The position numbers and the translations under genes were made by a program. DNA of 64,000 nt from Bacteroidales bacterium (GTDB lineage: Bacteria > Bacteroidota > Bacteroidia > Bacteroidales > M50B96): positions 33,944 to 97,943 of the forward strand of contig JAGYLP010000008.1 in assembly GCA_018401015.1 (NCBI GenBank), written 5' to 3'. Position 1 is the first letter of the stretch, and the number at the start of each line of letters is the position of its first letter. Shown one piece after another: positions 487-60,277 of the stretch. The notes under the pieces were generated by a model. That model made no database searches, was not told where the DNA came from, and saw only the letters and a program-made list of their open reading frames with translations.

Positions 487-525
487 GCTGTTCGTATATT
501 TGGGCGCAAAAATATACTTTTTACC

Positions 526-1413: not shown

Positions 1414-2214
1414 GCCGGAATTATTTACCGATTCCGAAGGAACCTCTTCAAGGGATTTTTGCTCCTCTTCCTTCAAACGTTTGGCTCGATTCGCAGCCAA
1501 CTTGTCGGCAAAGAGTTTTTTCTTTTCCGCCGGACGATACACATAGACTAACCCGTAGTGCGAAGCCTCATCGCGCTTCACTTCTTCGGAAGAATCGGCA
1601 AAATGCGCTTCTACTTCATTCCAAATCTGAAGGATAATGGCATCGGCCTGATCGCGCATCTCAGAAATCTTCTGCAAAGCTTTGTTGGTAATGATCTGTA
1701 AATCCTTTTGCAGATGATGAGCCGATTTAAACTTCTCATAGTGCACGCGAACAATCGCAGCAGTCGGATTGGTAATAATTTTATTCCCTCGTCGCTGCCG
1801 CTCCTGATCTCCATTCAAAAGCTTTTGACCCCACTCAATGAGTTCTGCATCGCTCGTAATTACCGGAACACTTTTATTATCCCGATCAATTCCGAAAAAT
1901 TCCCTTTCAACTTCCGGTAATTCATTTCTAAGTATCATCAGGTTCATTACCTGAAAGAAATGGGAAATATAAATTCGAGCTTTTTTATTGAGTTCCTGAT
2001 ATTCTTTAGCGCGTGTAACTTGCTTTTTATGAGCTTCTTTCTGACGGGTAATGGATTGCTCATACAAGGGCAGAAAGTTCTTTGCCTTCAGGAGAGCTTG
2101 TTGGGAGAAAGCCAAATCAAATGGCGACTTTTCGGAACTAACCTGAATGGCAGTCCGCAAAGCCTTCAAACGCGCGGCATCGGTATTGGGCAATCTTCTA
2201 TAGGGCATAAGCAA
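1393..2214 (-). CDS. hypothetical protein (soluble, Lys/Glu-rich)
   Basis: 273-aa ORF with no TM segment and no motif I can name. It overlaps the CPBP gene convergently by 21 nt. Confidence 0.6.
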   Translation of the reverse strand: MLMPYRRLPNTDAARLKALRTAIQVSSEKSPFDLAFSQQALLKAKNFLPLYEQSITRQKEAHKKQVTRAKEYQELNKKARIYISHFFQVMNLMILRNELPEVEREFFGIDRDNKSVPVITSDAELIEWGQKLLNGDQERQRRGNKIITNPTAAIVRVHYEKFKSAHHLQKDLQIITNKALQKISEMRDQADAIILQIWNEVEAHFADSSEEVKRDEASHYGLVYVYRPAEKKKLFADKLAANRAKRLKEEEQKSLEEVPSESVNNSGLPFYSN

Positions 2215-2501
2215 TAAGCTTCTTTACGTTCTCTGTCGAAATTCTCTTAACACAAAAGTAAAGTGAATTAACAGGTAATTACAAGTAAGCTCCTGATTTT
2301 TATAAACAAGGCATTGTTAAGAAAGATATTGATAGTCCAGAAGGCTACTCATTAATCGAAAATTTTACGAAAATTTCGAAAATCAACCCCTACTCAAAAC
2401 TATGATTAACAAGCAATTAACCCACCCCACCTACACATTAACCACGGTTTAGCAAGCTAAAGCGACTGAAAAGCAGGGTGTATTAGTTTAAAACAAGGAT
2501 G

Positions 2502-4334: not shown

Positions 4335-4395
4335 TGGATGGAAGATTAGCGTAGAAACCTGGATTGAATTTAGGAGCTTTTTCATGGTTCAGGGA

Positions 4396-6480: not shown

Positions 6481-6783
6481 ACAGCCAATTACAAGTTAAA
6501 TGAACAATAGCATTGAGTTGCCAATGAGACAAAAGGGGTTGCAGAATTCTGAATAACAATGGGTTGAAAGGATGGCTTGCACCAAAAATTATTGGACGAA
6601 GCCTAATCCGTTTTGATAATTGCCCAAGTATAAAATTATGCTTTATTTTTCAATTGACCCCATGGGAACTATCAAAACTAAAAATTTCTTAAAATGTTCG
6701 ATTCAATTCCATTCGAGTCCTATTTGCCCAGTCTTACGATTGAGTTATTAAGTTTTTTAAAAAGTGGATAATGGGGAATAGGG

Positions 6784-15072: not shown

Positions 15073-15690
15073 ATGACACGTATCCTTGTTTTCCTTTTCA
15101 TTGGTCTACTATCCATAGGAAGCGTTCATTCACAAGCGTTTACCGATTACCACCGGTTTAGCAAACAGGTAAAGTCTCGCACTTTCTTCATCGATGGAAT
15201 AGCAGAAGGAAAACACGAATACTTTTATAGGAATGGGAAAAAAGAGTTAGAGGCTCACTACCGGCGAGGATTGTTAGACGGCTCATTTATTGAATGGTAT
15301 CGGGACGGTCAAATCAAATTAATCGGGTATTTTAAACGAGATGTGCGCCATGGAAAATGGACCTTCTACTTTCGGAATGGGAAAACCCACATTCAGGAAT
15401 TTTACCTCGACGGAGTGCCCGACGATTATCGGTTCGAATGGTATACAAACGGTCAGTTAAAACAAAAATCCTATTTCGTAAATGGAGTTCTTCAAGGGGA
15501 ATGGGAAGCTTATTACAAAAACGGTCAGATAAAAGAAAAGGGGAATATTGTGAACGGCTTGCGCGATGGTTTATGGACTGAATGGTATGTGAACGGGCAG
15601 AAGCGCCTGGAAGCAATTTATCGCGAAGGAGTCTTAACCCGACCACCCATTCGCTGGTGGAGCAATGGGAATCTCGACGAAGGCTGGTAG
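15073..15690 (+). CDS. MORN-variant repeat protein (YwqK-like), secreted
   Basis: The track ORF is 15013..15690. Met21 (ATG at 15073) gives the signal peptide MTRILVFLFIGLLSIGSVHSQ. Repeated units of the form WY.NGQ.K....Y..G...G.W are present. Confidence 0.75.
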   Translation: MTRILVFLFIGLLSIGSVHSQAFTDYHRFSKQVKSRTFFIDGIAEGKHEYFYRNGKKELEAHYRRGLLDGSFIEWYRDGQIKLIGYFKRDVRHGKWTFYFRNGKTHIQEFYLDGVPDDYRFEWYTNGQLKQKSYFVNGVLQGEWEAYYKNGQIKEKGNIVNGLRDGLWTEWYVNGQKRLEAIYREGVLTRPPIRWWSNGNLDEGW

Positions 15691-15734
15691 CTTCTTTCAG
15701 CGATAATTATACTAGTTTTGCAAAAAAATCTCCA

Positions 15735-16511
15735 ATGGCGACCACTTTTTTGTTTCACGATGTAATTTTTGGACCGGTTAAGAGTCGACGACTTGGTATC
15801 TCCTTAGGAATCAACCTTTCTCCCACGCATACCAAGTGGTGTAATTACAATTGCTTGTATTGCGAATGCGGCTGGAATCCTGTTGCTGGGAGTAAACCGG
15901 TGCTCCCCTCGAAAGAAGAGGTAATTCAAAAGCTTCAGGAAACGCTTGTTCTCATGCAAGAAAAAGGAGAGAAACCCGATGTAATTACCTTTTCCGGCAA
16001 CGGAGAGCCAACCATGCATCCCTCATTCGAATGGATCGTTGACGAAGTGATAAACCTCCGCAACTCCTTTTGCTCCGGAGCACGCATTGCCGTATTATCA
16101 AACGCAAGTCTTCTGCATAAGGAATCGGTGTTCCGGGCATTACAAAAAGTGGACGATCCCATTCTGAAGCTCGATTCCGGAGGCGAACGCATGAGTCGAA
16201 TCATCAATCAACCAGCTTATCCTTTTGACTTGGAAAAGCACTTGCAGGAAATGGAAAAATTCGAAGGAAATTTCATTTTACAAAGCATCTTCCTGCGGGG
16301 TAGGTACCAGGAAGAAATCTTCGACAATACGAATGAAGATGAGCTGTGCAGGTGGATGAAGCACGTTAAGCGCTTGAATCCGCGGAAAGTGATGATTTAC
16401 TCATTGGATCGCGCCACCCCTCACCCCGATCTGGAGAAAGTAAGTTTGGAAGAACTAGAACGGATTGCTCAAAAACTTCGTTCCGAAGGCTTCGACGTTC
16501 AAGTTGCCTAA
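15735..16511 (+). CDS. radical SAM protein
   Basis: The track ORF 15582..16511 overlaps the upstream gene. Met52 (ATG at 15735) gives MATTFLFHDVIFGPVKSRRLGISLGINL...CNYNCLYCECGW, a CxxxCxxC cluster. Confidence 0.8.
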   Translation: MATTFLFHDVIFGPVKSRRLGISLGINLSPTHTKWCNYNCLYCECGWNPVAGSKPVLPSKEEVIQKLQETLVLMQEKGEKPDVITFSGNGEPTMHPSFEWIVDEVINLRNSFCSGARIAVLSNASLLHKESVFRALQKVDDPILKLDSGGERMSRIINQPAYPFDLEKHLQEMEKFEGNFILQSIFLRGRYQEEIFDNTNEDELCRWMKHVKRLNPRKVMIYSLDRATPHPDLEKVSLEELERIAQKLRSEGFDVQVA

Positions 16512-29948: not shown

Positions 29949-31235
29949 ATGCATCAATCACCCGTAGTAGTTCATTGGTTTCGGCGCGACTTACGACTTT
30001 CCGACAATCCTGCGCTTTCGGCAGCGAGCCACAGCCCCTTCCCAACCCTCCCACTCTTTATCTTCGACCGGGAAATTCTCGACCCACTGGAGCGAGACGA
30101 TGCCCGTGTGAGCTTTATTCACGAAAGTCTGCAGCAAATCAACTTGGATCTGCAACAGCACCAAGCTTCCCTCTTGATAAAAAAGGGTGAACCCTTGCAC
30201 GTTTGGAAGGAATTGGTAAAAGAGTTCAATATCCAGGGAGTTTATTTAAATCGCGACTACGAGCCTTATGCATTGAATCGCGATTCGGCTATTGGTGAGT
30301 TCCTTAAGCAACAAGGCATACCGGTGTATTCCTTTCAGGATCAGGTAATTTTTGAACCCAACGAAATCTTGAAAGCCGATGGAAAGCCCTATACCATTTA
30401 TACCCCCTACAAGAAAAAATGGCTCGAGCGCTTCGACACCAGTCGATTGAATGCATTTCCAGTGAATAAAAAGGGCTTTCTAACCTCAAACTTCCCTTTC
30501 CCAGCAATTCAATCAATTGGTTTTCAAGAATCTAAGGTCAAAGCAAAACCAATACAATGGGACCAATTGCACCAGTATGGCGAATGGCGCGATTTTCCTG
30601 CCAAGGCTGTTGGATCGAACCTGGGACCCCACCTTCGATTTGGGACGATAAGCACACGCGAGGCCGTTCAAAGAGCCACGGAAACGAACGAAGTTTTTCT
30701 GAGTGAGCTTATTTGGCGGGAATTTTTCATGCAAATCCTCTTTCATTTTCCCTCGGTTATCACCCATAGTTTTCATGCAAAGTACGACCGAATTGCCTGG
30801 AGAAATAATCCAGAAGAATTCGGACGTTGGTGCGAAGGGAAAACAGGATTTCCGATGGTCGATGCGGGCATGCGTGAATTAAAAGCAACCGGAACAATGC
30901 ACAATCGGGTAAGAATGGTAACCGCCAGTTTTCTAACGAAACATTTACTCATCGATTGGCGCTTAGGAGAAGCTTGGTTTGCCAAGCACTTGCTCGACTA
31001 CGAACTCGCTTCGAACAATGGGAACTGGCAATGGGCAGCAGGAACGGGTTGCGATGCTGCTCCCTATTTCCGCATTTTCAACCCAATGGAGCAATTCAAG
31101 AAGTTCGATCCGCAGGCAATGTATGTTAGAAAGTATGTTCCCGAATGGGATCGCTTCGATTATGTACCGCCTATGGTGGATCATAAAATGGCTCGTGAGA
31201 GAGCTTTGAAGACATACAAAGAAGGGATTATGTAA
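29949..31235 (+). CDS. deoxyribodipyrimidine photolyase / cryptochrome family protein
   Basis: 428 aa. N-terminal WFRRDLRLSDNPAL and C-terminal FAD-binding motifs (LIWREFF, MHNRVRM, NNGNWQWAAGTG) are present. Confidence 0.9.
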   Translation: MHQSPVVVHWFRRDLRLSDNPALSAASHSPFPTLPLFIFDREILDPLERDDARVSFIHESLQQINLDLQQHQASLLIKKGEPLHVWKELVKEFNIQGVYLNRDYEPYALNRDSAIGEFLKQQGIPVYSFQDQVIFEPNEILKADGKPYTIYTPYKKKWLERFDTSRLNAFPVNKKGFLTSNFPFPAIQSIGFQESKVKAKPIQWDQLHQYGEWRDFPAKAVGSNLGPHLRFGTISTREAVQRATETNEVFLSELIWREFFMQILFHFPSVITHSFHAKYDRIAWRNNPEEFGRWCEGKTGFPMVDAGMRELKATGTMHNRVRMVTASFLTKHLLIDWRLGEAWFAKHLLDYELASNNGNWQWAAGTGCDAAPYFRIFNPMEQFKKFDPQAMYVRKYVPEWDRFDYVPPMVDHKMARERALKTYKEGIM

Positions 31236-40709: not shown

Positions 40710-41912
40710 TTGAAAAAGAAAGTAGCGGTAGGATTATCGGGAGGTGTCGATAGCAGCGTAGCAGCTTATCTGCTCAAAGAGCAAGGCTACGAGCTCATTG
40801 GCATTTACATGCAGAACTGGCACGATACCGAAGGTATTTTAGCAGGCGATTGCCCCTCGCACGACGACATTGTTTTTGCCAAACTAGTCGCCAAGAAACT
40901 CGACATTCCTTTTCATTTGGTCGACTTAAGCTCGGAATACAAGCAACGAGTGGTTGATTATATGTTTAGCGAATACGAGGCAGGGCGCACACCTAATCCG
41001 GACGTGCTCTGTAATCGAGAAATCAAATTCGATGTATTCTGGAAAGTAGCCCTCGAATTTGGTGTCGATTATGTTGCTACAGGCCATTATTGCCGAAAGG
41101 ACGAAATCGAAACTCCTTCGGGAACTTATTATCGGCTTTTAGCCGGAAAAGATCCGAACAAAGACCAGAGCTATTTTCTCTGTCAACTTGATCAAGAGCA
41201 GTTAAAAACAGCGCTTTTCCCGATTGGGCATTTGCAAAAATCGGAAGTACGGGCCATTGCAGCTAAGATGGAATTGGCTACTGCCGAGCGAAAGGATAGT
41301 CAAGGAATTTGTTTTATCGGGAAGGTGGATTTGCCCACCTTCCTGCAACAAAAACTGAGCGTTAAGAAAGGTCGTATTGTAGAAATAGCGAAAGACACTT
41401 GGTTTTATGGCAAACGAAAAGATCTTCCCTTCGAAGTGGATCGACCGGGAGAGGATGCCTTGCAAAAAATTTGTCGTCCTTATCATTATCTTCCTAAAGA
41501 TGGGGTAGTTGTGGGCGAGCACCGAGGGGCACACTTTTTCACCATCGGACAGCGAAAAGGCCTGAACGTTGGAGGAAAAGCTGAACCTTTGTTTGTAATT
41601 GCGACCGACACCGAATTGAACGTGGTTTATGTTGGTCAAGGGCACGATCATCCGGGTTTAAACCGACGGGCTCTCAAGATTGAAGCATCGGATGCTCATT
41701 GGGTGCGACCGGATAAACGATTGCACGTTGGAGAGTCGGCAGCATACCAGGTGCGTATCCGATACCGACAAGAACTACAAAATGCCCGGATCCATTGCTT
41801 GGAGGATGGCTTATACCTTCATTTTGAGCAACATCAGAGAGGAATTGCATCCGGTCAGTTTGCTGCATGGTACGAAAATGAAGAATTAATTGGCTCCGGC
41901 GTAATACGCTAA
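40710..41912 (+). CDS. mnmA: tRNA 2-thiouridine(34) synthase
   Basis: 400 aa with a TTG start. PP-loop GLSGGVDSSVAA, plus TGHY and DQSYFL motifs. Confidence 0.92.
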   Translation: MKKKVAVGLSGGVDSSVAAYLLKEQGYELIGIYMQNWHDTEGILAGDCPSHDDIVFAKLVAKKLDIPFHLVDLSSEYKQRVVDYMFSEYEAGRTPNPDVLCNREIKFDVFWKVALEFGVDYVATGHYCRKDEIETPSGTYYRLLAGKDPNKDQSYFLCQLDQEQLKTALFPIGHLQKSEVRAIAAKMELATAERKDSQGICFIGKVDLPTFLQQKLSVKKGRIVEIAKDTWFYGKRKDLPFEVDRPGEDALQKICRPYHYLPKDGVVVGEHRGAHFFTIGQRKGLNVGGKAEPLFVIATDTELNVVYVGQGHDHPGLNRRALKIEASDAHWVRPDKRLHVGESAAYQVRIRYRQELQNARIHCLEDGLYLHFEQHQRGIASGQFAAWYENEELIGSGVIR

Positions 41913-42067: not shown

Positions 42068-42559
42068 ATGAAAAGAGCTGTATTCCCCGGATCGTTCGAT
42101 CCATTTACGATTGGCCATGAATCCATCGTTCTTCGGGGATTGGATTTGTTCGATGAAATTATCATAGCGATTGGTTATAATTCCAATAAACCGGGTTTTT
42201 TTCCCATTGAACAGCGAATTCAATGGATTAAAGATGTGTTTAAGGATTATCCGCGAATTCAGGTCGATGCCTATCAGATGCTAACCATCGATTATTGCCG
42301 GAAGGTAGAGGCTCAGTTTATTCTGCGGGGGTTGCGAACCTCGGCCGATTTTGAATACGAACGAGCAATTGCACAGGTAAACAAAACCTTAGCCCCTCAA
42401 ATTGAATCGGCCTTTCTCTTAACTCTACCTGAGCACAGCATGGTAACAAGCAGCATTGTGCGCGATATTATTCGTCATGGAAGCGATGCTTCGCAATTAT
42501 TACCCAACCGAATGAAGATTAAGCCTGGCGATTACAGCTTCAAGGAATCGAGCCGCTGA
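42068..42559 (+). CDS. coaD: pantetheine-phosphate adenylyltransferase
   Basis: 163 aa with FPGSFDPFTIGHESIV. Confidence 0.92.
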   Translation: MKRAVFPGSFDPFTIGHESIVLRGLDLFDEIIIAIGYNSNKPGFFPIEQRIQWIKDVFKDYPRIQVDAYQMLTIDYCRKVEAQFILRGLRTSADFEYERAIAQVNKTLAPQIESAFLLTLPEHSMVTSSIVRDIIRHGSDASQLLPNRMKIKPGDYSFKESSR

Positions 42560-43710
42560 TAATATTTAAAATCCATTAGGAGACTATCGGAAGGATGAAG
42601 AATTGCCGTTAATTCGAGCAAAATGCGGTGAGGCTCAAGAATTCCGGTCTCCCAGTAATCATTCCCACCCGCCTCATTTTGTCGTTTGTTATTATTAAAA
42701 ACCTTTCCTTCGCGGAAGGATTTAAAATCGCCAAGTCGAGAGTCTATCGATAAAATTTCTTCCAAACTTTGAGCAAATCCTGAGTTAATCCAGATATCGG
42801 CATCGGCTGCTTTTAAGTAAACAGTCTCAAGCGATAAAGCTTGCGGTTCGCGTTTTGTCCAATGCGACCAGACATAATTTCCACCGGCATCGGCAATAAA
42901 ATGAGCCAGGTAGGAATCCATCCCGGGTAAGTACCACACTTCCTTCCACGGTAATCCGGTAAGCACTCTCGGTTTATGCTGAAACTGGAAGTTGTTTTCT
43001 CTTACAGCTTCGTAGGAAACCTGGATAGAATCGAATAACTGCTTTGCTTTTGCTTCTTCCTGAACGAATGGAGCTAAGGCCTTAATCCATTCGGCCTTCC
43101 CTAAGGGATGCGTTTCGAGGTAGTCGGCCACCATAAAATCATTCATTCCCAACTCCTGAATTTTAGCAGAAATGGCAGAAACTTCGCTCCCAACCCCATA
43201 ACTAAATAGCAGATCGGGATCAACTTCAATCATTACTTCCCAATTTAGACCTCCTTCGCCACCAATCTCACGCAAATCGCCGATAGCAATGCGTTCTTTC
43301 AACTCAGGATGATGCAAGTACCTTGTGCCGGAAACTGCCTGAATTAGTGAAGTTTTTTCCAAAGCGTGCATAAAACCGACATGCGTGGACGACATACACG
43401 CCATCGATTCGATAGGAACAGGAATGTATTGTGCCTCGAAGTCAAAATAAGGTTGAGGCATTTCTTTGGGATAAAGGACGTAGATAAATTCGACCTCTTC
43501 AGCACCTTGCCACGGATCTTTCACCACGATAAACGTAATGTCATCCTTTTCGTAGAGTTCAAATCCTTTTGCATACGCCAATTCAATTTGACTCGTTCCC
43601 TGTGGAAAAGGATCCTCCATTTCAGGACCATCAGACCGGGGCGACTTACAGGCCACCGCTTGAAAAAGAGAAATAAGCAGCACTATACGTATGCTGATGA
43701 AATGCTTCAT
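42532..43710 (-). CDS. periplasmic/lipoprotein ABC substrate-binding protein, metal-chelate (FecB/BtuF, type 8) family; no cognate permease or ATPase in the window
   Basis: The track ORF is 42532..43761. Met18 (ATG at 43710) gives the lipobox LFQAVA-C-KSP. The body resembles iron-siderophore/cobalamin binding proteins (PIESMACMSSTHVGF..., DPDLLFSYG). Confidence 0.7.
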   Translation of the reverse strand: MKHFISIRIVLLISLFQAVACKSPRSDGPEMEDPFPQGTSQIELAYAKGFELYEKDDITFIVVKDPWQGAEEVEFIYVLYPKEMPQPYFDFEAQYIPVPIESMACMSSTHVGFMHALEKTSLIQAVSGTRYLHHPELKERIAIGDLREIGGEGGLNWEVMIEVDPDLLFSYGVGSEVSAISAKIQELGMNDFMVADYLETHPLGKAEWIKALAPFVQEEAKAKQLFDSIQVSYEAVRENNFQFQHKPRVLTGLPWKEVWYLPGMDSYLAHFIADAGGNYVWSHWTKREPQALSLETVYLKAADADIWINSGFAQSLEEILSIDSRLGDFKSFREGKVFNNNKRQNEAGGNDYWETGILEPHRILLELTAILHPSDSLLMDFKYYQRLDSLKL

Positions 43711-43794: not shown

Positions 43795-45642
43795 CTACGG
43801 CTGAATCAAAATACGCTCGGCATGCACTTTATTTCGATCGCTAACCCGAATAAAATAGAGTCCTGCCTTAATGTTTTGCATATTAATTTGAATCCGGTCG
43901 GTAGCTTGTAAAGCTGTTTTAACCGCAATTTGTTTACCGCTTACATCAAAAACCTGAATGGTACATTCCGAGGAAACGGGTTCTAAGAAGGCTACGTTTA
44001 GGAGACCACGACTTGGATTCGGATAAATTTCGAAAGCTTTATCAGCGACAACTACTTCATCTACGCCAATAATAGCACCGGTCGTATTACATACGATAGG
44101 TTCTACGCCCAAGCTGGTATTATATCCTGCAAATAATGGAATTTCGTGCATTGGAACCCAATTGTTATTCACTTTAACCAACATGGTTGACAAACCATTG
44201 GATCCTCGGTTATGCGCCATAGAGCAACTAAATACACCTTCGCCATTATAAACCAATTCGTAACCCACAAAGAAAGTTCCGGCTACATCGAGCGGAGTGT
44301 CGAAATAGATGAAGTTTGAAAAGTTCGGAGCCAAGCTCGAAACAAACACTTCTTTTGATCCTATTTCGTTCGTAGGAACTGTGTTTCCGGACCACACAAT
44401 GAATCGAACTTTCGTTCCGCTAGGAGCATCGGCTATATCGACCCAAGCTTGCAACCCGTTCACTTTATCGTAAATGGAATCACTGTTGGTATAGCGGTCG
44501 GCGTAAGCTTGATAGAGGTAAAAATTGTTCCCCGGTACCACTCCCCACGGAGATACAGGTAGTACGACCAGTGAATCGTTCGATAACAAGTTTGTTACAG
44601 TATCGCACACTTCGACTATGGGTTCTTCGGCCAGCACGGTGATATACGCATATTTTGTGCTGTAGGAAGTACCCCAGGCATTGGTTGTGGTTAAATACAC
44701 ATTGTAAGTACCCGGATAATTATAGGTAATAGTCGTCGGATTTTGATCGATGGAGCTAATGGGGCTTCCTCCTTGGAAGGTCCAACTCCATTCATCCGGG
44801 TTTCCGAGTGTTAGGTCAAGGAAATTAATGGATTCGCCCACCATAATTTCCGTATCGGTTGCAACAAAATCGGGTGTTGGAGCCGAAGGATTGACTACAT
44901 AAACATATTCGGTACGTTCGTGCGTATCGGTTCCGTCGGAAACGACTAAGGTAACCGGATAAACACCGATGGCATCGTATAGAACCGTGACATTCTGACT
45001 AGTGGAAGTTGCTGGATCACCTCCGGCAAAAGTCCAGTTCCAGGAAATAGGATCTCCCAATGATTCATCGATAAAATTAACTGTGTTTCCATACACTACG
45101 GTTACCGGGTTAATGGTAAAGAGTGCTGTGAGTTGTTCCTGGCAAGGTTGAGCAACCGGACCATAACTTTCGATCGTTGTTACAGCACTGCTGGAGCTCA
45201 TATCCTGTTCGAGAATGGTTTTATCGACATCGATTAAAACCATGGTCGGGTAAGCCGTTACACCATAATCGGCGCAAACGGAGTTAGCACCACCATCTTG
45301 TCCGCTACAAGCCGGGAAAGTTCCCCCGTATTGTATCATCCAATCCGTGACTTCTGGATCTGTATCGCCGTTGTTAATTGCGAGAAGTACTACTTCGCCG
45401 TAATTACAACCAAAATGCTGGTAAGCATTTTCGATCGCAGGGACAGAAGCCTGACAGGTAGGTCAACTATTGAAGAAAAAGTACAAAGCCACCATTTGGC
45501 CATTGTCCAAATAATCGAACAGATTATGGACATTGCCTTGGGTGTCGGTTACCGTAAAATCGACGGCAGTGGTCAGACCGGTTTGCCCCCAAACCGAGGC
45601 GGCAAAAACCAATGCAAACACCGACAAAAGCAATTTTTTCAT
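43795..45642 (-). CDS. predicted selenoprotein: signal peptide, thioredoxin-fold (TlpA/redoxin-like, U-P-T-C active site, Sec60 encoded by TGA), two PKD-like domains, an unknown beta-rich domain and a T9SS C-terminal sorting domain
   Basis: The track gives only 43795..45339 (514 aa, no signal peptide). The same frame continues upstream through one TGA (45463-45465) to ATG 45642. My translation is MKKLLLSVFALVFAASVWGQTGLTTAVDFTVTDTQGNVHNLFDYLDNGQMVALYFFFNS-U-PTCQASVPAIENAYQHFGCNYGEVVLLAINNGDTDPEVTDWMIQYGG... The two PKD-like repeats contain WNWTFAGGDP and WSWTFQGGSP. The C-terminal domain reads EIYPNPSRGLLNVAF...GLYFIRV. Confidence 0.75.
45406..45438 (-). promoter_or_regulatory. candidate SECIS-like hairpin in the coding sequence, starting 25 nt 3' of the UGA
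   Basis: RNA sequence GCGAUC-G-AAAAUGCU-UACC-AGCAUUUU-GGUUGU: an 8-bp upper stem, a tetraloop, a bulged G, and a 6-bp lower stem with G-U pairs. The loop starts ~39 nt after the UGA and lacks the loop G of published bacterial SECIS models, so this is tentative. Confidence 0.35.
45463..45465 (-). other. in-frame UGA, predicted selenocysteine codon (residue 60)
   Basis: This is the only stop between ATG 45642 and the stop at 43795. It occupies the position of the first Cys of the CxxC motif. Confidence 0.7.
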
Positions 45643-45679
45643 AAGCTAGTAAAGTTTAAAATGATCATCAAATGACTCT

Positions 45680-45687
45680 CAAAGATA
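45680..45687 (-). promoter_or_regulatory. candidate -7 box TATCTTTG (TAnnTTTG) for the selenoprotein gene
   Basis: The plus strand reads caaagata, so the minus strand reads TATCTTTG. It lies 38-45 nt upstream of ATG 45642. Confidence 0.35.
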
Positions 45688-46128
45688 TATAATTCACTCG
45701 TATGTAGCACGCATTTTTAAAATAAGACCTAAACATCTTATTTGGGTTAAACAAGCCTAAAAACAGACCCTCCCGAAGGAAGTTTTTCAACCCTAAAAAC
45801 AGCCATCCTAAGGGTTAGACGCACCTCCTTCCAAAAGGTTGCCTCTTAGTACCTCCTAATTTCGGTCCAATCCTCCTATTGCTTATCAAATCGGATTATG
45901 GTTTAGTCCAACCGAGAATCCCACACCAAGTTGCCCGTCCCGATTCGTGTCTATAGGATCTTGAATTTCGAATCTTAAACCTTAAACTTTGAATCCGCTC
46001 TTCCCAAAACATTTCCCCTTTAATGGAAGATGGAAAATACTATCTTTCGCGCTGGTTTAGTTTTCGGACAAATCTTCGACCTCGTTGGGATTATTCTGGT
46101 CGGATCGGAATCCTATTCAAAACCAATA

Positions 46129-46224
46129 CAGAGGGGACGGATCTGGTGGTTCATCTGGTCTTCAAAACCAGCAGCAGACGGATAAAACCGGCTGTGGCAG
46201 GTTCGATTCCTGCCCCCTCGGCCA
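46129..46224 (+). tRNA. selC: tRNA-Sec (anticodon UCA)
   Basis: Folded by hand. D arm: ggatc-tggt-ggttc (46139-46152), a long stem with a 4-nt loop. Anticodon arm: ctggt-cTTCAaa-accag (46155-46171), with anticodon TCA at 46162-46164. Long variable arm: cagc-aga-cgg-ataaaa-ccg-gctg (46172-46194). T arm: gcagg-ttcgatt-cctgc (46197-46213). Acceptor: gagggg / cccctc, followed by ggcca. The exact 5' and 3' ends are ambiguous (see findings). Confidence 0.8.
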
Positions 46225-46245
46225 AGACACTTTACTTACTATTAC

Positions 46246-47655
46246 ATGAGCGACCATCACGCTAAATTGAGTTCAATCCCGGGTGTTGATACACTCATAG
46301 AGGTTGAAGCTATTCGCAACTTATTGGATAAGCATCCTTCGCGACTCGTTAAAAGCATTATTCGCGAACAATTAGATGAAGCCAGAGAGCAAATAAAAGC
46401 TGGCCATGAGGTTAGTACTCAAGGCTTGATTGATGCTATCGTGGCGGTTTGTTCCAATACCTTCAAACCCTCTTTAAAGAAGGTTTTGAATGCGACTGGA
46501 ATACTGATACACACCAATTTAGGAAGAGCTCCCTTAGGAAAAGAAGTGCTCGAAGAAGCCTGGCAAGTGTTGGAAGATTACAACAACCTCGAATTCGACC
46601 TGGATAAAGGGAAACGAGGCAGTCGATACAAACATGTGAGCCAATTGATTTGCAAGATTACCGGGGCGGAATCAGCCTTGGTGGTAAATAATAATGCCGC
46701 CGCCTTAATGCTCATCCTGCGAACCTTTGCCAAGAATCGGGAAGTAATTGTATCTCGAAGTGAGCTGATCGAGATCGGAGGATCTTTTCGTCTGCCCGAT
46801 ATCATGGCTGCCAGCGATTGCAAAATGGTAGAAGTGGGCACTACCAATAAAACCCGTTTAAGCGATTATGCACACCACATAACCGACGACACCGCGCTCC
46901 TGCTAAAAGCACACTGGTCGAATTTCATCATCAAAGGGTTTACCGAGGAAGTTCGTCCCGATGAGTTAGCTGCGCTAGGAAAAGAAAGAGGAATCCTTTC
47001 CATGCTTGATTTGGGTTCCGGGTTACCCGACAATCGCATTCATCCGCTACTGCAAAGTGAATTAGATATTCGAACTGCTTTGAACAGTAACGTCGATTTG
47101 GTTTGCTTTAGCGGCGACAAGCTGTTTAATGGGCCGCAAGCTGGAATTATTCTCGGAAGCGAAAGCTTGATTAATCAGCTAAAAAAAGAGCAAATGACCC
47201 GTGCCTTGCGGGTAGGAAAAACCACCTTGGCTTTACTGGAAACGGTTTGCAAGCGGCATTTAAAATCGGATAATCAATCGCTCGATTTACCCATTTATCG
47301 AAAACTAAACCGGAGCAAACAAGAATTCCTCGAATTAGGCGAAAAACTTCTTCGATTATTGGAATCGATAGGTCTCGAAGGAGAGATTATTCCATCCGAA
47401 GGACGATTTGGTGGCGGAGCATTGCCTGAAACCATCATTCCCTCCTACTCCGTAGAATTGAGCAAACCGGCCAAAAAAGCGCATCATGAAAAACTCCATT
47501 TCGGTCTTATGAAGCATCCTCGACCGGTTGTGAGTAGCCTGATTAAAGGTCGATTATCGTTCAATTTGCTTAGCTTAAACGAACACGATTTAGAACCCCT
47601 GGTGCAGAGCCTATCCGACGTATGGACTCGATTAGGTGCACCGAAAGAGAACTGA
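46246..47655 (+). CDS. selA: L-seryl-tRNA(Sec) selenium transferase
   Basis: 469 aa. N-terminus LSSIPGVDTLIE, motifs VLNATGILIHTNLGRAPL and VNNNAAALMLIL, and the PLP-lysine motif FSGDKLFNGPQAGII. Confidence 0.9.
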   Translation: MSDHHAKLSSIPGVDTLIEVEAIRNLLDKHPSRLVKSIIREQLDEAREQIKAGHEVSTQGLIDAIVAVCSNTFKPSLKKVLNATGILIHTNLGRAPLGKEVLEEAWQVLEDYNNLEFDLDKGKRGSRYKHVSQLICKITGAESALVVNNNAAALMLILRTFAKNREVIVSRSELIEIGGSFRLPDIMAASDCKMVEVGTTNKTRLSDYAHHITDDTALLLKAHWSNFIIKGFTEEVRPDELAALGKERGILSMLDLGSGLPDNRIHPLLQSELDIRTALNSNVDLVCFSGDKLFNGPQAGIILGSESLINQLKKEQMTRALRVGKTTLALLETVCKRHLKSDNQSLDLPIYRKLNRSKQEFLELGEKLLRLLESIGLEGEIIPSEGRFGGGALPETIIPSYSVELSKPAKKAHHEKLHFGLMKHPRPVVSSLIKGRLSFNLLSLNEHDLEPLVQSLSDVWTRLGAPKEN

Positions 47656-49589
47656 CTTTGAACAAGCACCTGATAATTGGCACCGCTGGACATGTCGATC
47701 ATGGGAAGACAGCCCTCGTAAAAGCGCTCACCCAAATCGACTGCGATACCCATCCCGAAGAAAAACAGCGAGGCATCACCATTCATTTAGGATTTGCCCA
47801 TATCCGTTTACCCGATGGGAATGAGTTTGGAATAGTGGACGTTCCCGGTCATAAAGATTTCATTCAGACTATGGTTGCCGGGACCTCCGGTATCGATTTA
47901 ATCCTGTTAGTGATTGCAGCCGACAGCGGCATTATGCCCCAAACCCGGGAACATTTATCGATTATTCAAGCTTTGGGAGTGACCCGGGGTATTGTCGTCA
48001 TTAGCAAGAGTGATTTGGCCGATCAGGAATGGCTCGATATGTTGGAGTTGGATATTCGCTCTTTTCTCGAAGGCAGTTTCCTGAATGAAGCTCCTATTGT
48101 GCGCGTATCGTCACAAACCGGACACGGACTTACGGATCTAGTGGATTTATTGCAAGCGGAAGCTCTATTCTGTAAAAGCAAACCGTCGGAAGGCGCTTTT
48201 CGATTATACATCGACCGATTATTCAGCGTGAAAGGACAAGGATATGTAGCTACCGGCTCGGTCCTTTCCGGTCGCATACAGAGCAAGGATAAAGTTTATT
48301 TACTCCCTTCCGGGAAAGAATACACCGTAAAAGGAATTCAGCGATTTGGCCGGGAGGTAGCCGATGCTTTTGCCGGCGATCGAGCTGCTATCAATTTAGC
48401 CGGGTTCAAGCCGGAAGATTTTGAGCGCGGCATGCTATTAAGTTCAAGCATCCGATCGACCAGCGAGCGAGCCGATGCCAGTATCCAGCTCTTCCCGGGT
48501 TCTACCATCGGGAAAAAGCATAGCTACGTACTTTTTTTATGTGGAACCTTCCAGACCAAAGCGCGCATGCACCTCATCGACGCTTCCAAGCTGGAAGAAG
48601 GAGAAGAAGCCATTGTCCAATTTCACTTCGATAAAAAACCGATTTTAGAGCGAGGCGACCGTTTCATATTGCGAAACACTTCGAACGATTCGAGCTTGGG
48701 AGGAGGCTACATAATAGACTCTCAACCCTTGCATCACAAGCGCCCGAAAGCCGATTTGATTGAATCATTGCAAGGATTAAAACAAGCTATCGAGTCGCAG
48801 GCCAATGAATTAAACCTGTTAGCTTTGAGTCTGCTGAAACTCGACGGCCCTGTAAAGGTGAGCCAGTTGTGCGATGAAGCATCGATACAGACAAATCCAT
48901 CCGAATTTTCCCGAGAAGAATTACTAGCCGAAGGGATTCACTATTTTCCGGAATTAGACATGCTGGTTCATCGCGTTTATCTGGAAAAGATCGAGCAAAA
49001 GGTCCTTGCAATATTGGCTGAACATCATCAAAAATTCTATCTGTTAGCGAGCGGATTGACAACCTCTGCTTTATCGGGGAAACTAGGGATACGCGCCAAA
49101 ACGCCCGCCGACCAACTCATCCCTCATCTTTTACAACTAATTCCTTCCATACGCGAACATCAGGGGCAGTGGATGCTTGCGAACTTTACGGTTAAGTTGT
49201 CGGCAAAGGATCGAGAGGACTTGGAATGGATGGTTGAGCAATATGCCCATTACGAGTGGAACAAACCCGTAGAGGAAGATTTGGATCAGGAAGCGAATAA
49301 GCGGAACATTGCTAAGGAAAAACGCAAAATGTATTGTCAGTATTTGGTAAACGATGGCCGCTTATACGCTTACGATCAAGGCTTTCTGCACGCATCGGTG
49401 GTTAAGCAGGCGAAAGAACGGGTAGTGGAAGAATTAATTCGGCGGGGGAAAGGGATGAATGAAGGAGATTTCCGGACCTTGCTCGGAGCCACGCGAAAGA
49501 TTGTCCCGCCCTTATTGAGTATTTTGCAAAAAGAAGGTGTTATCACTCAGGAAAAATTCATTATCGCCCTACCCGATTCAAAAAAATGA
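47622..49589 (+). CDS. selB: selenocysteine-specific translation elongation factor
   Basis: 655 aa. IIGTAGHVDHGKTALVKALT, DVPGHKDF and SKSD GTPase motifs, with a long C-terminal winged-helix-type extension. An alternative TTG start at 47658 lies 3 nt after the selA stop. The ATG at 47622 overlaps selA by 34 nt. Confidence 0.88.
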   Translation: MDSIRCTERELTLNKHLIIGTAGHVDHGKTALVKALTQIDCDTHPEEKQRGITIHLGFAHIRLPDGNEFGIVDVPGHKDFIQTMVAGTSGIDLILLVIAADSGIMPQTREHLSIIQALGVTRGIVVISKSDLADQEWLDMLELDIRSFLEGSFLNEAPIVRVSSQTGHGLTDLVDLLQAEALFCKSKPSEGAFRLYIDRLFSVKGQGYVATGSVLSGRIQSKDKVYLLPSGKEYTVKGIQRFGREVADAFAGDRAAINLAGFKPEDFERGMLLSSSIRSTSERADASIQLFPGSTIGKKHSYVLFLCGTFQTKARMHLIDASKLEEGEEAIVQFHFDKKPILERGDRFILRNTSNDSSLGGGYIIDSQPLHHKRPKADLIESLQGLKQAIESQANELNLLALSLLKLDGPVKVSQLCDEASIQTNPSEFSREELLAEGIHYFPELDMLVHRVYLEKIEQKVLAILAEHHQKFYLLASGLTTSALSGKLGIRAKTPADQLIPHLLQLIPSIREHQGQWMLANFTVKLSAKDREDLEWMVEQYAHYEWNKPVEEDLDQEANKRNIAKEKRKMYCQYLVNDGRLYAYDQGFLHASVVKQAKERVVEELIRRGKGMNEGDFRTLLGATRKIVPPLLSILQKEGVITQEKFIIALPDSKK

Positions 49590-49630: not shown

Positions 49631-50515
49631 TTAGTTGAGCGACTGAATGTATTTTTCCAGTTCATCGAGCCGATCGATAATTCGTATGGGCGATTTTTCG
49701 GGCAACGGATGTTTTGAGCTGGCCGAACCGGTAAGCACAATTTGATGTTTGGGGAAGCTGGCGTGCAATTCGGCTATGAATGTTTCCCATTGCGATTCGT
49801 TCATGGGCATGATTACGGAGATAATCATGTGTTTTGCTTTCCAGAATTTTTCGACTTCGGCTACCGAGTTTACCGGTGTTCCCGAACCTATATACAAGAC
49901 CGTGAATCCCTTTTTCTTCAGCAGATAATAGGCATACAATAAACCCATTTCGTGTAAATCTTTTTCCGGGAGGAAGAGGATGAATTTACGGTCGGTATCA
50001 TTCTTCTCGTTGGGGATGGACTCGATGGTAAAGATGAGTTTTTGCCGGATCAGGTTGGAAATAAAATGCTCCTGAGCGGGAGTAATGGATCCACTTAGCC
50101 ACAAGAGGCCTATTTTTTCGAGCGATGGTAAAATGAGTTGTATGTAGGTTTCTTCGAAAGAAAATTGTTCGACTGCCTGATTGAATAGTTCATGAAATTT
50201 ATCCTCGTTGAGCGTAAGCATAGCAAGGATTAGCGCTTCAATTTTATCGGAAATACCGGATGCCCGCGAGGTTACCTCGAGCACTTTCTTTTCAATATCC
50301 TCTTGGGCTAAACTCGCCAAATAGGAAATTTTCATTCCTTTATTATTGAGAATGGCGATGTTGAGAATATGTCGAAGATCGTCGTCGGAATACGAACGAA
50401 TATTGGTATCGGTTCTCCCCGGATCGATGATGCCATAGCGTTTTTCCCAAATTCGGATGGTATGCGCTTTGATCCCCGAAAGGTTTTCTAAATCTTTGAT
50501 GCTGTATTGAGCCAT
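49631..50515 (-). CDS. MerR-family regulator with C-terminal cobalamin-binding domain (CarH/LitR-like)
   Basis: 294 aa. N-terminal HTH YSIKDLENLSGIKAHTIRIWEKRYG. The C-terminal domain carries a DxHxxG B12-binding motif (EKDLHEMGLLYA). Confidence 0.75.
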   Translation of the reverse strand: MAQYSIKDLENLSGIKAHTIRIWEKRYGIIDPGRTDTNIRSYSDDDLRHILNIAILNNKGMKISYLASLAQEDIEKKVLEVTSRASGISDKIEALILAMLTLNEDKFHELFNQAVEQFSFEETYIQLILPSLEKIGLLWLSGSITPAQEHFISNLIRQKLIFTIESIPNEKNDTDRKFILFLPEKDLHEMGLLYAYYLLKKKGFTVLYIGSGTPVNSVAEVEKFWKAKHMIISVIMPMNESQWETFIAELHASFPKHQIVLTGSASSKHPLPEKSPIRIIDRLDELEKYIQSLN

Positions 50516-50534: not shown

Positions 50535-51059
50535 TTAAGAAGCAAGATGTTTGAGAATTTTCTGGCTCATGGGTTTGGTGATACTGTAAAAAACATCCAC
50601 CCACCGACCGTCGGGGTCGATGAGGTATTTTTGGAAGTTCCATTTTACAGAATTATTGTCTTTTCCATTTTTTTCTTTCTGGGTTAACCAAGCGTATATG
50701 GTATGTTGATGATCGCCCATTACATCGACCTTTTCGGCCATTAGGAAGCTAACGCCATAGTTCGAGGCACAAAAGGTTTCGATTTCCTCCGCTGATCCGG
50801 GTTCCTGATTAGCAAACTGGTTGCAGGGAAAACCGATTATAGCCAGTTTATCCCCAAACTTGCTATGCAATTCTTGTAAGTCGGCATACTGCGGGGTAAA
50901 TCCACACTTGGATGCGACATTTACAATAAGGATAAACTTCCCTTTAAACTCGCTCATCGAATGCTCTTTCCCTTGCAAGGATTTAAAACTTAGCGAATGA
51001 ATGCTAGGTAAATCTTTCACTTCTACCTCTCTATTTCGAAGCCACGGTATCATACACAA
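50535..51059 (-). CDS. glutathione peroxidase (Cys form)
   Basis: 174 aa. Motifs LIVNVASKCGFTPQY, FPCNQF and WNFQKYL. The catalytic residue is a TGT Cys codon at 50903-50905, not TGA. Confidence 0.9.
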   Translation of the reverse strand: MCMIPWLRNREVEVKDLPSIHSLSFKSLQGKEHSMSEFKGKFILIVNVASKCGFTPQYADLQELHSKFGDKLAIIGFPCNQFANQEPGSAEEIETFCASNYGVSFLMAEKVDVMGDHQHTIYAWLTQKEKNGKDNNSVKWNFQKYLIDPDGRWVDVFYSITKPMSQKILKHLAS

Positions 51060-58069: not shown

Positions 58070-58912
58070 ATGAGTCTCGAATTATACCACGAGGTAGCCA
58101 GCAAAACCTCTGCGCTAACTACCAAAAATTACAGCACGTCGTTTTATTTATCAACTACGTTGCTGTCGCCCGAAATGCGAGATGCTATCTATGCTATCTA
58201 CGGTTTTGTTCGCTATGCCGACGAGATTGTGGACAGTTTTCATCATCAGAATAAAGCTGAATTGATGGAAGAGTTTGAGAAAGAGTTTTATAGGAGCTTG
58301 GAGCGCGACTTAAGCATGAATCCTATTTTGCATTCTTTCCTACGGGTGGTGAAGCGCTACAACATTAAGGATGAATACATTCAAGCTTTCTTAAACAGTA
58401 TGAAAGCCGACTTAAAAGAGATTAACTATTCGAACGAGGAAGAATTGAAAGCCTACATTTATGGTTCGGCCGATGTGGTTGGATTAATGTGTTTGGCTGT
58501 TTTTTGCAAGGGCGATACAAATTTGTTTGCTGATTTAGAGAAGCCTGCCATGTATCTGGGTTCCGCCTTTCAGAAAGTGAACTTTCTACGCGATTTAAAG
58601 AACGACCACGAGAACCTTGGTCGCAGTTATTTCCCCCACGTGACCCGTCATAATTTCACCGAAGAATCGAAAACTGAGATCATTGCCGATATCGAAAACG
58701 ATTTCAATTTGGCTTATAAAGGTATTCAGCAATTGCCTTCGGAAGCCAAACCTGCTGTGTTGTTGGCTTATTATTATTATCGCAGTTTGCTTAACAAATT
58801 ACGCCGTACTCCGGCCAGTCGGATTAAAGTAGAGCGGATTCGGGTTGGTTCCATGAAAAAAATCATGCTCATGAATAAAGCCATTGTTTATAATCACCTC
58901 GGATTAATCTAA
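58070..58912 (+). CDS. crtB: phytoene synthase
   Basis: 280 aa. Motifs YGFVRYADEIVD and YIYGSADVVGLM (the two Asp-rich regions), plus RSYFP. Confidence 0.88.
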   Translation: MSLELYHEVASKTSALTTKNYSTSFYLSTTLLSPEMRDAIYAIYGFVRYADEIVDSFHHQNKAELMEEFEKEFYRSLERDLSMNPILHSFLRVVKRYNIKDEYIQAFLNSMKADLKEINYSNEEELKAYIYGSADVVGLMCLAVFCKGDTNLFADLEKPAMYLGSAFQKVNFLRDLKNDHENLGRSYFPHVTRHNFTEESKTEIIADIENDFNLAYKGIQQLPSEAKPAVLLAYYYYRSLLNKLRRTPASRIKVERIRVGSMKKIMLMNKAIVYNHLGLI

Positions 58913-58932
58913 ACCCTCTCAAACCTTCGAAT

Positions 58933-59622
58933 ATGTCGCTCTACTTCACCCTTTTACTAGGGTCGATTTCCGTTCCTTTACTCTTAAGTTTCGATAAAAA
59001 AGTAGCCTTTTACCTTTCCTGGAAATGGGTGCTGCCGGCCATTATCCTGGTTGCTGCCGAATTCATTGCCTGGGATATTTGGCTTACACATCTAGGGGTG
59101 TGGGGCTTTAACGAACGGTATCATGGAAGTTGGACTCCAGGTGGGTTACCCATCGAAGAATGGTTGTTTTTTATCGTTGTACCCTACGCCAGCTTGTTTC
59201 TGCATTATGTTCTGCGCGCCTACTTCCCGAACTTAGCCCTGGGCGATCGTACATTCAAATTCCTCAATTACGGGTTGCTTGCACTCCTTGCCTTTCTGCT
59301 GGTGGTCTTTCACGACCGAACCTACACGGCTTACATTTTTGCGCACACCATATTTGCCCTCTTACTTGGACTATTCGACAAACGCAAAACCATGCAAACC
59401 TACTTCTTGAGCTTCCTATTGATTCTTGTTCCTTTCTTCCTTGTAAATGGCATACTAACCGGGAGTTTCATCGAAGGAGAAGTGGTTTGGTACAACGATG
59501 CCGAGAACATGGGCATTCGAATCTTTACCATTCCTATTGAAGACAGTGCCTATGCGTTTAGTATGATTTACTACAGTTTGTTTCTCATAGAATGGTGGAA
59601 ATCAAAATCAAGGTTGAGTTAA
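58933..59622 (+). CDS. lycopene cyclase domain protein (fused CrtYc/CrtYd type)
   Basis: 229 aa, 6-7 TM segments, with two repeats each containing a PIEE/PIED motif (LPIEEWLFF, IPIEDSAYAF). Confidence 0.8.
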   Translation: MSLYFTLLLGSISVPLLLSFDKKVAFYLSWKWVLPAIILVAAEFIAWDIWLTHLGVWGFNERYHGSWTPGGLPIEEWLFFIVVPYASLFLHYVLRAYFPNLALGDRTFKFLNYGLLALLAFLLVVFHDRTYTAYIFAHTIFALLLGLFDKRKTMQTYFLSFLLILVPFFLVNGILTGSFIEGEVVWYNDAENMGIRIFTIPIEDSAYAFSMIYYSLFLIEWWKSKSRLS

Positions 59623-59623
59623 T

Positions 59624-60277
59624 ATGAAGGCATTGGTGATTCGGGATTATCCCAAAGGAGTAATCGGTTTTTTTGTTCTTTTTTACACAGTCGGTGTGTT
59701 GGGGATGATTTACGAGCCCACCCGAAGGTTTTTCATGTCGCTCACTCCCTTAGCTCTCTTACTAAGCTCTTTTGCACTAGCACTTTTCCATCGGTCGGTA
59801 TTTGGAAAAAAGGAAGCCTTGGTCTTTGCTGCTATCGTTATTTTTGGATACTTGGTAGAAGTAGTGGGAGTGAATACCGGTAAAATATTCGGAGTTTATG
59901 CCTACGGTGCTACACTTGGGCTGAAAGCATGGGACACACCCTTCATGATTGGACTTAACTGGTTATTACTGGTTTACACGAGTGCTGCCATGGTTCAGCA
60001 TTTTAATGTTCCGCGGTATTTGCAGCCGGTTGTGGCAAGCTTGCTCATGTTAGGTTACGACTTTATTCTTGAGCCAATTGCACCCCGAATCGACATGTGG
60101 GAGTGGGCCAATGATGCAGCCCCGCTAGAAAATTTCATTGCCTGGGGCTTGGTAGCCTACATCTTTCACACGATTCTCCTCTTATCGCGAATTCAAATCA
60201 AGAATCCCTTAGCTATTGCCATTTTTATCTTGCAAGTAGTATTCTTTGCCCATCTATATTTCCTTCCAACCCTATGA
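59624..60277 (+). CDS. membrane carotenoid biosynthesis protein (DUF422 / CruF-like putative 1',2'-hydratase)
   Basis: 217 aa, multi-TM. It starts 2 nt after the cyclase gene. The family assignment rests on sequence resemblance and context. Confidence 0.6.
   Translation: MKALVIRDYPKGVIGFFVLFYTVGVLGMIYEPTRRFFMSLTPLALLLSSFALALFHRSVFGKKEALVFAAIVIFGYLVEVVGVNTGKIFGVYAYGATLGLKAWDTPFMIGLNWLLLVYTSAAMVQHFNVPRYLQPVVASLLMLGYDFILEPIAPRIDMWEWANDAAPLENFIAWGLVAYIFHTILLLSRIQIKNPLAIAIFILQVVFFAHLYFLPTL

Follow-up and report, generated by a model that had tools for sequence, protein, structure and literature searches.

The closest described counterparts of the locus considered here are the proteobacterial selA-selB-selC operons that stand next to fdhA; in the case of Pseudomonadales, Zhang et al. 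(2006) proposed a horizontal route for selABC together with fdhA (PMC1794560). The same study reported selenocysteine (Sec) decoding to be absent from Bacteroidetes (PMC1794560). Here we describe a 64-kb stretch of contig JAGYLP010000008.1 from a Bacteroidales bacterium, henceforth the window, which carries a selC-selA-selB cassette and, divergent from it, an apparent selenoprotein gene that we call the client. Like the proteobacterial operons, the window combines clustered machinery with an adjacent selenoprotein gene and a selD gene that would have to lie elsewhere. It differs from them in that selC comes first, upstream of selA, and in that the client encodes a secreted UxxC oxidoreductase (U being Sec) rather than a formate dehydrogenase; moreover, the organism belongs to Bacteroidota, and the evidence favors vertical descent over transfer. 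We regard it as probable that the cassette is the front half of the standard Bacteroidota Sec locus, vertically inherited and functional.

Several parallels are also available for the client. The Prx-like thiol:disulfide oxidoreductases are a predicted selenoprotein family defined by pfam00578 plus a UxxC motif (PMC9312934), and the redox domain of the client belongs to this family because it displays both. With the family at large (UxxC or UxxU; PMC9312934, PMC5029168), the client shares the AhpC/TSA-type thioredoxin fold, the UxxC motif, and abundant Cys homologues, but it differs in being multidomain and, by prediction, secreted: it bears a signal peptide, PKD domains, and a type IX secretion system (T9SS) sorting domain. 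The best matches among solved structures are ResA/TlpA/CcmG proteins (PDB 4nmu, 1st9), with which it shares an aligned redox motif and an extracytoplasmic location; however, these are membrane-anchored CxxC proteins of cytochrome c maturation, whereas in the client the first Cys would be replaced by Sec and the protein is predicted T9SS cargo. The precedent for a thioredoxin-like T9SS cargo is HBP35 of Porphyromonas gingivalis, which has a role in heme acquisition (PMC2907840). HBP35 is likened to the client by features, not by sequence comparison: it too is T9SS cargo that has a C-terminal sorting domain and a motif of the thioredoxin type, but it uses Cys and binds hemin (PMC2907840, PMC3120885), which the client is not known to do. 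Literature searches returned no description of an architecture combining UxxC, PKD, and T9SS elements, of T9SS-secreted selenoproteins, or of Bacteroidota selenoproteomes, although such a negative does not establish novelty.

The locus belongs to a known kind: it is a standard Sec-decoding locus, found in Bacteroidota. Its genes are real, and the original prediction, made from the letters of the window alone, observed them correctly, with all coordinates right to within 1 base. Current understanding of Sec decoding is unchanged by these results; what they add in detail is that selC comes first across the phylum, that the selD half is missing here, and that a T9SS-secreted UxxC oxidoreductase recurs as the partner of the Sec genes. 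The apparent anomaly of finding a Sec cassette in a phylum formerly held to be without the trait is thereby explained: this is the standard locus of the phylum minus its selD half. Of the source genome, the analysis covered the 64-kb window.

The Sec locus of Bacteroidota and its front half in the window

A SelA scan of one genome per species, covering 185,579 species, recovered 46 loci, all from Bacteroidota isolates or metagenome-assembled genomes (MAGs) except for 2 labelled Chlorobiota, which places all 46 in Bacteroidota or the wider FCB group. Sec decoding had been called uncommon in Bacteroidota at the outset; the absence reported in 2006 is in keeping with that view, but at least 46 species-level genomes now carry this type of SelA. 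In 40 of the 46 loci, selA has a tRNA-Sec gene just upstream of it in the same orientation, and the order selC-selA-selB is therefore judged typical of the phylum; selB follows selA in 43 of the 46. In 24 loci the cluster runs on, still on the same strand, to a yedF-like gene (about 202 aa) and then selD, often with a cysteine desulfurase-like/class V aminotransferase gene (about 380 aa) before the yedF-like gene and a DUF3343-like gene (about 75 aa) after it. The full cluster, selC-selA-selB-(cysteine desulfurase-like)-yedF-like-(DUF3343-like)-selD, occupies positions 428-7611 of locus L003, 9870-15092 of L005, and 9886-14952 of L046, and it recurs in 21 further loci. Neighboring genes of these accessory types have been reviewed as selenium associated (PMC9312934).

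Set against this canonical cluster, the window has the same selC-selA-selB order, strand, and spacing and a nearly identical tRNA-Sec, but it is without everything past selB; in terms of gene order, it is the front half of the cluster. The cassette had been proposed to be self-contained, a view contradicted by the 24 relatives that continue through the yedF-like gene to selD, all of which is missing here. The truncated arrangement has company. Among the 32 loci whose sequence extends 4 kb or more beyond selB, 8 have no selD nearby; a sel cluster without a nearby selD is thus a common minority state, and about seven other relatives likewise retain only the front half, with selA and selB intact. 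Some individual variations were also seen. Each of ten selD genes inspected has an active site of the Cys type (GGCSAKL or GGCSSKL), not the Sec type. In one locus (L042, 9872-16261), the tRNA-Sec gene is present twice, at 9872 and 15087, and selB aligns in fragments only; another (L018, 10001-11398) has selC and selA with no selB within 10 kb.

In the window, selC (46129-46224, plus strand) encodes a tRNA-Sec with anticodon tca (UCA) and is the sole tRNA gene found by ARAGORN in the 64 kb. The assignment rests on ARAGORN and on Rfam family RF01852 (56.2 bits against a gathering score of 47, relatives scoring 56 to 62 bits), which together recover the UCA anticodon, the long variable arm, and the extended acceptor/T helix of the class. 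The sequence is close to the Bacteroidota consensus. Between the 3′ end of the tRNA and the ATG of selA at 46246 lies an AT-rich spacer (46225-46245, plus strand) that, read directly from the sequence, has the 21 nt originally estimated for it. A spacing of 21 to 40 nt recurs in 27 of 38 measurable related loci, and selC ahead of selA at this distance is the rule in Bacteroidota. Both the tRNA and the spacer are identical in a same-species MAG contig (CALGAK010000011.1, designated L001), which shares 95.7% nucleotide identity with the window across 8.5 kb.

The selA gene (46246-47655, plus strand) encodes an L-seryl-tRNA(Sec) selenium transferase of 469 aa that is matched by TIGR00474, PF03841, and PF12390 and that scores 499.7 bits over the full length of the TIGR00474 equivalog model (cut-off 267.9). 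It is followed by selB (47658-49589, plus strand), a Sec-specific elongation factor of 643 aa from a TTG codon, of the class that joins an EF-Tu-like GTPase to a C-terminal extension for binding the Sec insertion sequence; it scores 322.1 bits on the TIGR00475 equivalog model (cut-off 242.25) over model positions 1 to 570 of 581; no Pfam SelB-wing model matched it at E<0.001. Two starts had been entertained for selB, and both are present: an ATG at 47622, which gives a 34-nt overlap with selA, and the TTG at 47658, which lies 2 nt, not 3 nt, past the selA stop at 47653-47655. In L001, a TAA occurs at codon 3 after the equivalent of the ATG, and the sequence is conserved from the TTG on. As only the TTG is usable in L001, selB starts at TTG 47658, and alignments to 40-odd other SelB proteins begin at approximately the same residue. 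A close-relative comparison can in this manner assign the start codon of selB.

The comparison with L001 also speaks to the state of the pathway. At a divergence of 0.11 to 0.19 synonymous substitutions per site (dS), the ratio of nonsynonymous to synonymous substitution (dN/dS) is 0.095 for selA and 0.115 for selB, against 0.096 for the glutathione peroxidase gene, 0.057 for MutL, and 0.012 for the rhomboid protease. Values of about 0.1 indicate that selA and selB are under purifying selection. On account of these ratios and of the identity of the tRNA and spacer in L001, we favor a live, functional Sec pathway.

As initially noted, selD is absent from the 64 kb, and two types of search agree on this. 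Neither ten Bacteroidota SelD proteins taken from related loci nor the Escherichia coli SelD gave a tblastn match in the window better than E=0.05, and Pfam scans of essentially all open reading frames (ORFs) in the window revealed no AIR-synthase-type domain. Remnants of selD and of the yedF-like, DUF3343-like, and desulfurase-like genes were sought throughout the window, including the 486-nt intergenic region upstream of selC, and none was found. Instead, selB is followed by a convergent gene for a CarH-like regulator and then by a glutathione peroxidase gene (50535-51059), whose motif VASKCGFT identifies it as a Cys enzyme, as had been stated. Given the purifying selection on selA and selB, we infer that selD is encoded elsewhere in the genome.

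The client gene and its pairing with the Sec machinery

The client (43795-45642, minus strand) is predicted to encode a protein of 615 aa, from an ATG at 45642 to a stop at 43795, for which Pfam, NCBIfam, and PDB all provide matches. Its frame contains exactly one internal stop, the TGA at 45465-45463 (minus strand), which, read as Sec, would occupy the first position of a UxxC motif (FFFNS-U-PTCQ). The N terminus, MKKLLLSVFALVFAASVWG|Q, was recognized by inspection as a signal peptide, with Q following the predicted cleavage site in all homologues. Thereafter come a thioredoxin fold, two PKD domains, about 200 aa with no family match, and a T9SS type A sorting domain. The thioredoxin fold is detected by PF00578 (AhpC-TSA; 49.5 bits versus a cut-off of 26), with PF08534 (Redoxin) and PKD also matched, and in NCBIfam by the ResA subfamily. 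The C-terminal sorting domain is detected by PF18962 (55.8 bits, cut-off 27) and TIGR04183 (46.2 bits, cut-off 23). The best PDB match is ResA (4nmu, E=2.5e-10), in which the first Cys of the CxxC motif is aligned to U. No component of the T9SS machinery was recognized in the Pfam scans of window ORFs.

A metagenome scan with a redox-domain query built from a four-sequence alignment yielded 80 client loci, of which 77 have Cys at this column and 3 (L062, L064, and L075) have TGA. Seven further homologues linked to sel genes bring the number with TGA at the client column to ten, and in all ten the coding sequence is conserved on both sides of the TGA. Likewise, the stretch of 41 codons that separates the TGA from the next ATG shows protein-level conservation across homologues. 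The divergent gene is accordingly a credible selenoprotein gene, as had been proposed, because its TGA aligns with the first Cys of ResA and with the Cys of 77 metagenomic homologues and because ten homologues have TGA there themselves; Sec is thus its predicted reading. Gene callers truncate Sec-form client genes at the TGA. A second candidate for TGA read-through, upstream of 15582-16511, was rejected on the grounds that the extension looks non-coding and that a MORN-repeat-like ORF lies in another frame; no other ORF of the window was a credible candidate.

The proximity of machinery and client, to which the original prediction drew attention, is not a coincidence, as it recurs in seven other species in several arrangements. 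Client homologues are present in 7 of the 45 other SelA loci (L010, L019, L028, L029, L030, L036, and L037), and in all seven the TGA of the client column is present in frame, in a protein that has both a signal peptide and a T9SS tail. The client is divergent and upstream of selC in L036 and L037, as in the window; it stands directly after selD on the same strand in L019, L029, and L030, after selD on the opposite strand in L010, and about 6 kb downstream of selB in L028. Conversely, 76 of the 77 Cys-form clients are unlinked to selenium genes, L088 being the sole exception, and for two TGA forms with long flanks (L064 and L075), neither sel genes nor tRNA-Sec occur within about 10 kb. In a neighbor-joining tree, the TGA forms fall at no fewer than five places among the Cys forms. 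The picture that emerges is one of a family of ResA-like CxxC proteins, secreted and widespread, that has repeatedly switched between Cys and Sec and whose Sec forms tend, but are not obliged, to adjoin sel genes. The exceptional locus L088 (1292-5563) comprises selC, a selA that is frameshifted near homopolymer runs, selB, a 262-aa Cys-form client overlapping the selB stop, and aspS. Decay of the Sec trait, with conversion of Sec to Cys, could account for it, as could sequencing error.

In the same orientation and 84 nt downstream of the client is a gene for a Peripla_BP_2 lipoprotein (42532-43710, minus strand; PF01497, 53.3 bits; lipobox LFQAVA-C), which is probably part of the client operon. 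A gene of this type also follows the client in L036 and L037. The lipoprotein has about 130 N-terminal residues with no family match; it gave no NCBIfam match and, by sequence search, no PDB match, and no ABC permease or ATPase gene lies nearby. In the client itself, the roughly 200 residues that separate the PKD domains from the T9SS tail (approximately residues 340-535; 43795-44620) have no Pfam match. The module formed by the two PKD domains, this segment, and the tail shows 37% identity to a T9SS protein of serine-protease-like type whose gene comes just after selB in L036 (8456-9784).

Transcription and the proposed route to the selenoprotein

The region between the client and selC (45643-46128) has a GC content of 39% and would hold the promoters of both. 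The two genes are divergent across it, as first described, though its length is 486 nt and not 487. Since a sigma-70-type promoter scan is uninformative for Bacteroidota, the Bacteroidota −7 box, TAnnTTTG, was used instead. A pattern search found one exact copy on the minus strand, TATCTTTG (45680-45687), about 38 nt upstream of the client ATG, and this is a plausible client promoter. On the plus strand, the best candidates are boxes with one mismatch at 46058 and 46041, lying 63 and 80 nt upstream of selC, and about half of the relatives have an exact box approximately 23 nt upstream of tRNA-Sec. The region also contains a hairpin with an A-run on one side and a T-run on the other (45770-45782), which resembles a bidirectional terminator and matches no known RNA family. 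On either side of it stands one copy of a direct repeat, CCTAAAAACAG (45756-45766 and 45792-45802).

The three sel genes had been said to look like one tight transcription unit. They are probably co-transcribed, given that no terminator-like site occurs between selC, selA, and selB and that the spacing is kept in 27 of 38 relatives. The simplest reading would be a single transcript from which the tRNA is released by RNase P and a 3′ endonuclease. Joint transcription of tRNAs and an mRNA has a precedent in the tRNA-tufB operon of E. coli. The selC-first arrangement at 21 to 40 nt makes a tRNA-mRNA co-transcript directly testable.

Combining these observations, we propose the following route. 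Most likely, selC, selA, and selB are transcribed together; RNase P and a 3′ endonuclease would then free the tRNA-Sec and leave a selA-selB mRNA with a short AT-rich leader, on which selB would be translated by coupling, from the TTG 2 nt after the selA stop. The tRNA-Sec would be loaded with serine by SerRS, and SelA would convert the product to Sec-tRNA-Sec with selenophosphate supplied by a SelD whose gene lies elsewhere in the genome. SelB-GTP would next bring Sec-tRNA-Sec to the UGA at 45465-45463 of the client mRNA, which is predicted to be co-transcribed with that of the substrate-binding lipoprotein. The resulting client would be a ResA/TlpA-like thiol-disulfide oxidoreductase with Sec in place of the nucleophilic first Cys of CxxC, and it is likely to be exported by the Sec translocon and then by the T9SS to the cell surface or medium.

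Descent and competing explanations

The composition of the client, selA, and selB is native to their surroundings: their GC content is 0.446 to 0.470, compared with 0.444 ± 0.030 for the other window genes, and their GC content at third codon positions (GC3) is 0.43 to 0.49, compared with 0.456 ± 0.054. The flanking genes are core genes, namely, those for MnmA, CoaD, FtcD, BipA, two thioredoxins, the CCA-adding enzyme, MutL, a rhomboid protein, a ParC/GyrA-like topoisomerase, TrpRS, and PntAB. The block consisting of CoaD, the binding lipoprotein, the client, and selC-selA-selB is syntenic with L036 and, without CoaD, with L037. Native GC and GC3, housekeeping flanks, and this synteny lead us to favor vertical descent. 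As the synteny persists although SelA of the window is only about 46% identical to those of L036 and L037, the arrangement of the block predates a deep split. The suggestion that the cassette was possibly acquired horizontally fares poorly in this light. A synteny comparison had been advised for this question; it shows the block kept in L036 and L037 and gives no sign of a recent foreign module.

Several observations weigh against a functional, vertically inherited front half. Neither selD nor any homologue of the yedF-like, DUF3343-like, and desulfurase-like genes was found in the 64 kb. A T-to-G change in selC produces an A:G mismatch at the second acceptor pair (46130/46220), which is A-U in 38 of 39 relatives, and no exact TAnnTTTG box is present on the plus strand upstream of selC within 45643-46128. 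SelA of the window is an outlier, with 47% identity to the other loci versus 57% among those loci themselves. Its identity is 98% to that of L001 and 45 to 53% to those of the other loci over the matched segment, and no SelA of intermediate identity (about 50 to 97%) was found among the 185,579 species genomes; because of this jump from 98% to 49% or less, without intermediates, the Sec trait is rare or poorly sampled in the lineage. Finally, the hairpins of a candidate Sec insertion sequence (SECIS) region (45405-45456, minus strand), one of 6 bp at 45456-45436 with GU in its loop and the other, bulged, of 15 bp at 45439-45405, have z-scores of only −1.0 to −1.7, and RNAalifold on eight client homologues recovered no shared structure or pairs. 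Since no SECIS is definable in the window, the case for Sec insertion rests on comparative evidence and not on a SECIS.

Some further observations were made on these RNAs. The A:G acceptor mismatch is common to the window and L001, and the tRNA-Sec of L036 (3954-4046), a locus that also has the gene order of the window, has A:A at the same pair. A consensus SECIS was considered and rejected, as RNAalifold gave no pairs and single-sequence folds place the hairpins in different registers. In the subgroup formed by L019, L029, and L030, a 10-bp hairpin with compensatory changes begins 14 nt after the UGA (z=−3.3). An Rfam scan of 45300-46300 (E<=1) returned only the tRNA-Sec and a chance miRNA match.

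One alternative is that selC-selA-selB and the client constitute a mobile unit, acquired by horizontal transfer in a genome where selD was already present. A published model has the same shape, with selABC clustered, a selenoprotein gene adjacent, and selD evolving separately (PMC1794560). Further, TGA clients adjoin sel clusters in at least four arrangements and are polyphyletic among Cys forms, and the gap in SelA identity between about 50 and 97% across the species genomes points to a trait that is patchy in the lineage. Against this stand the native composition and core-gene flanks, the absence of integrases and transposases from the window ORF scans and of any repeat boundary, the synteny with L036 and L037 (coaD included in the former), and the fact that the nearest SelA and tRNA-Sec sequences are all of the Bacteroidota type. 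Among genes of kinds often tied to mobile elements, the nearest encode a Fic protein and a ParE toxin, 5 to 6 kb off. We therefore consider such a unit unlikely: an ancient transfer within the phylum may have occurred, but a recent, self-contained acquired module is not supported.

Two further ideas concern the reason for the adjacency. The T9SS-exported UxxC oxidoreductase, and not formate dehydrogenase, might be the anchor selenoprotein that holds the Sec trait in Sec-using Bacteroidota, acting with the binding lipoprotein in the acquisition of selenium or redox nutrients at the surface. If so, a common function and common regulation, beyond the relation of machinery to client, would explain why it repeatedly stands beside selCAB, the yedF-like gene, and selD. 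We offer this as speculation, with the chances decidedly against it. Slightly more doubtful still is the proposal that the UxxC protein and the binding protein capture selenium, or another chalcogen or metal, at the cell surface, which would itself explain why they sit next to selenium genes. In its favor are the repeated placement of the client beside selD or the yedF-like gene (L019, L029, L030, and L010), the conservation of the operon with the Peripla_BP_2 lipoprotein in three lineages, and the action of HBP35, a thioredoxin-like T9SS cargo of P. gingivalis, in heme acquisition (PMC2907840). On the other hand, Cys forms are common and, in 76 of 77 cases, unlinked to selenium genes; no sel genes occur within about 10 kb of the TGA forms L064 and L075; and linkage of the binding protein is confined to the clade of the window.

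The last alternative is a decaying pathway, in which selD and the accessory genes have been lost, the TGA ends the client after 59 residues, and selCAB are becoming pseudogenes; the missing selD, yedF-like, and DUF3343-like genes, the acceptor mismatch, the want of a convincing SECIS in the window, and the possible picture of such an outcome in L088, with its frameshifted selA and Cys-form client right after selB, would fit it, but it is the least probable of all, given that selA and selB are intact with full-length model matches and a dN/dS of about 0.1 over 0.11 to 0.19 synonymous substitutions per site, that the window and L001 do not differ in tRNA or spacer, that the 41 codons from the TGA to the next ATG are conserved as protein, and that seven other relatives without a nearby selD keep selA and selB intact.

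A few minor features of the window remain. MnmA, the tRNA 2-thiouridine synthase that makes the substrate of the selenouridine pathway, is encoded 4 kb from the client (40710-41912, plus strand); no selU/mnmH is present in the window, and the proximity is probably coincidental. TGA is rare as a stop codon, ending about 6 of 52 likely genes, and both selA and selB are among those that it terminates. The CarH-like gene directly after selB (49631-50515, minus strand) encodes a MerR/B12-binding regulator, and genes for phytoene synthase, lycopene cyclase, and photolyase lie further off (58070-60277, plus strand; 29949-31235, plus strand). The photolyase, the carotenoid genes, and the CarH-like regulator suggest an aerobic life exposed to light, in contrast to most of the anaerobic Sec-using Bacteroidales relatives.

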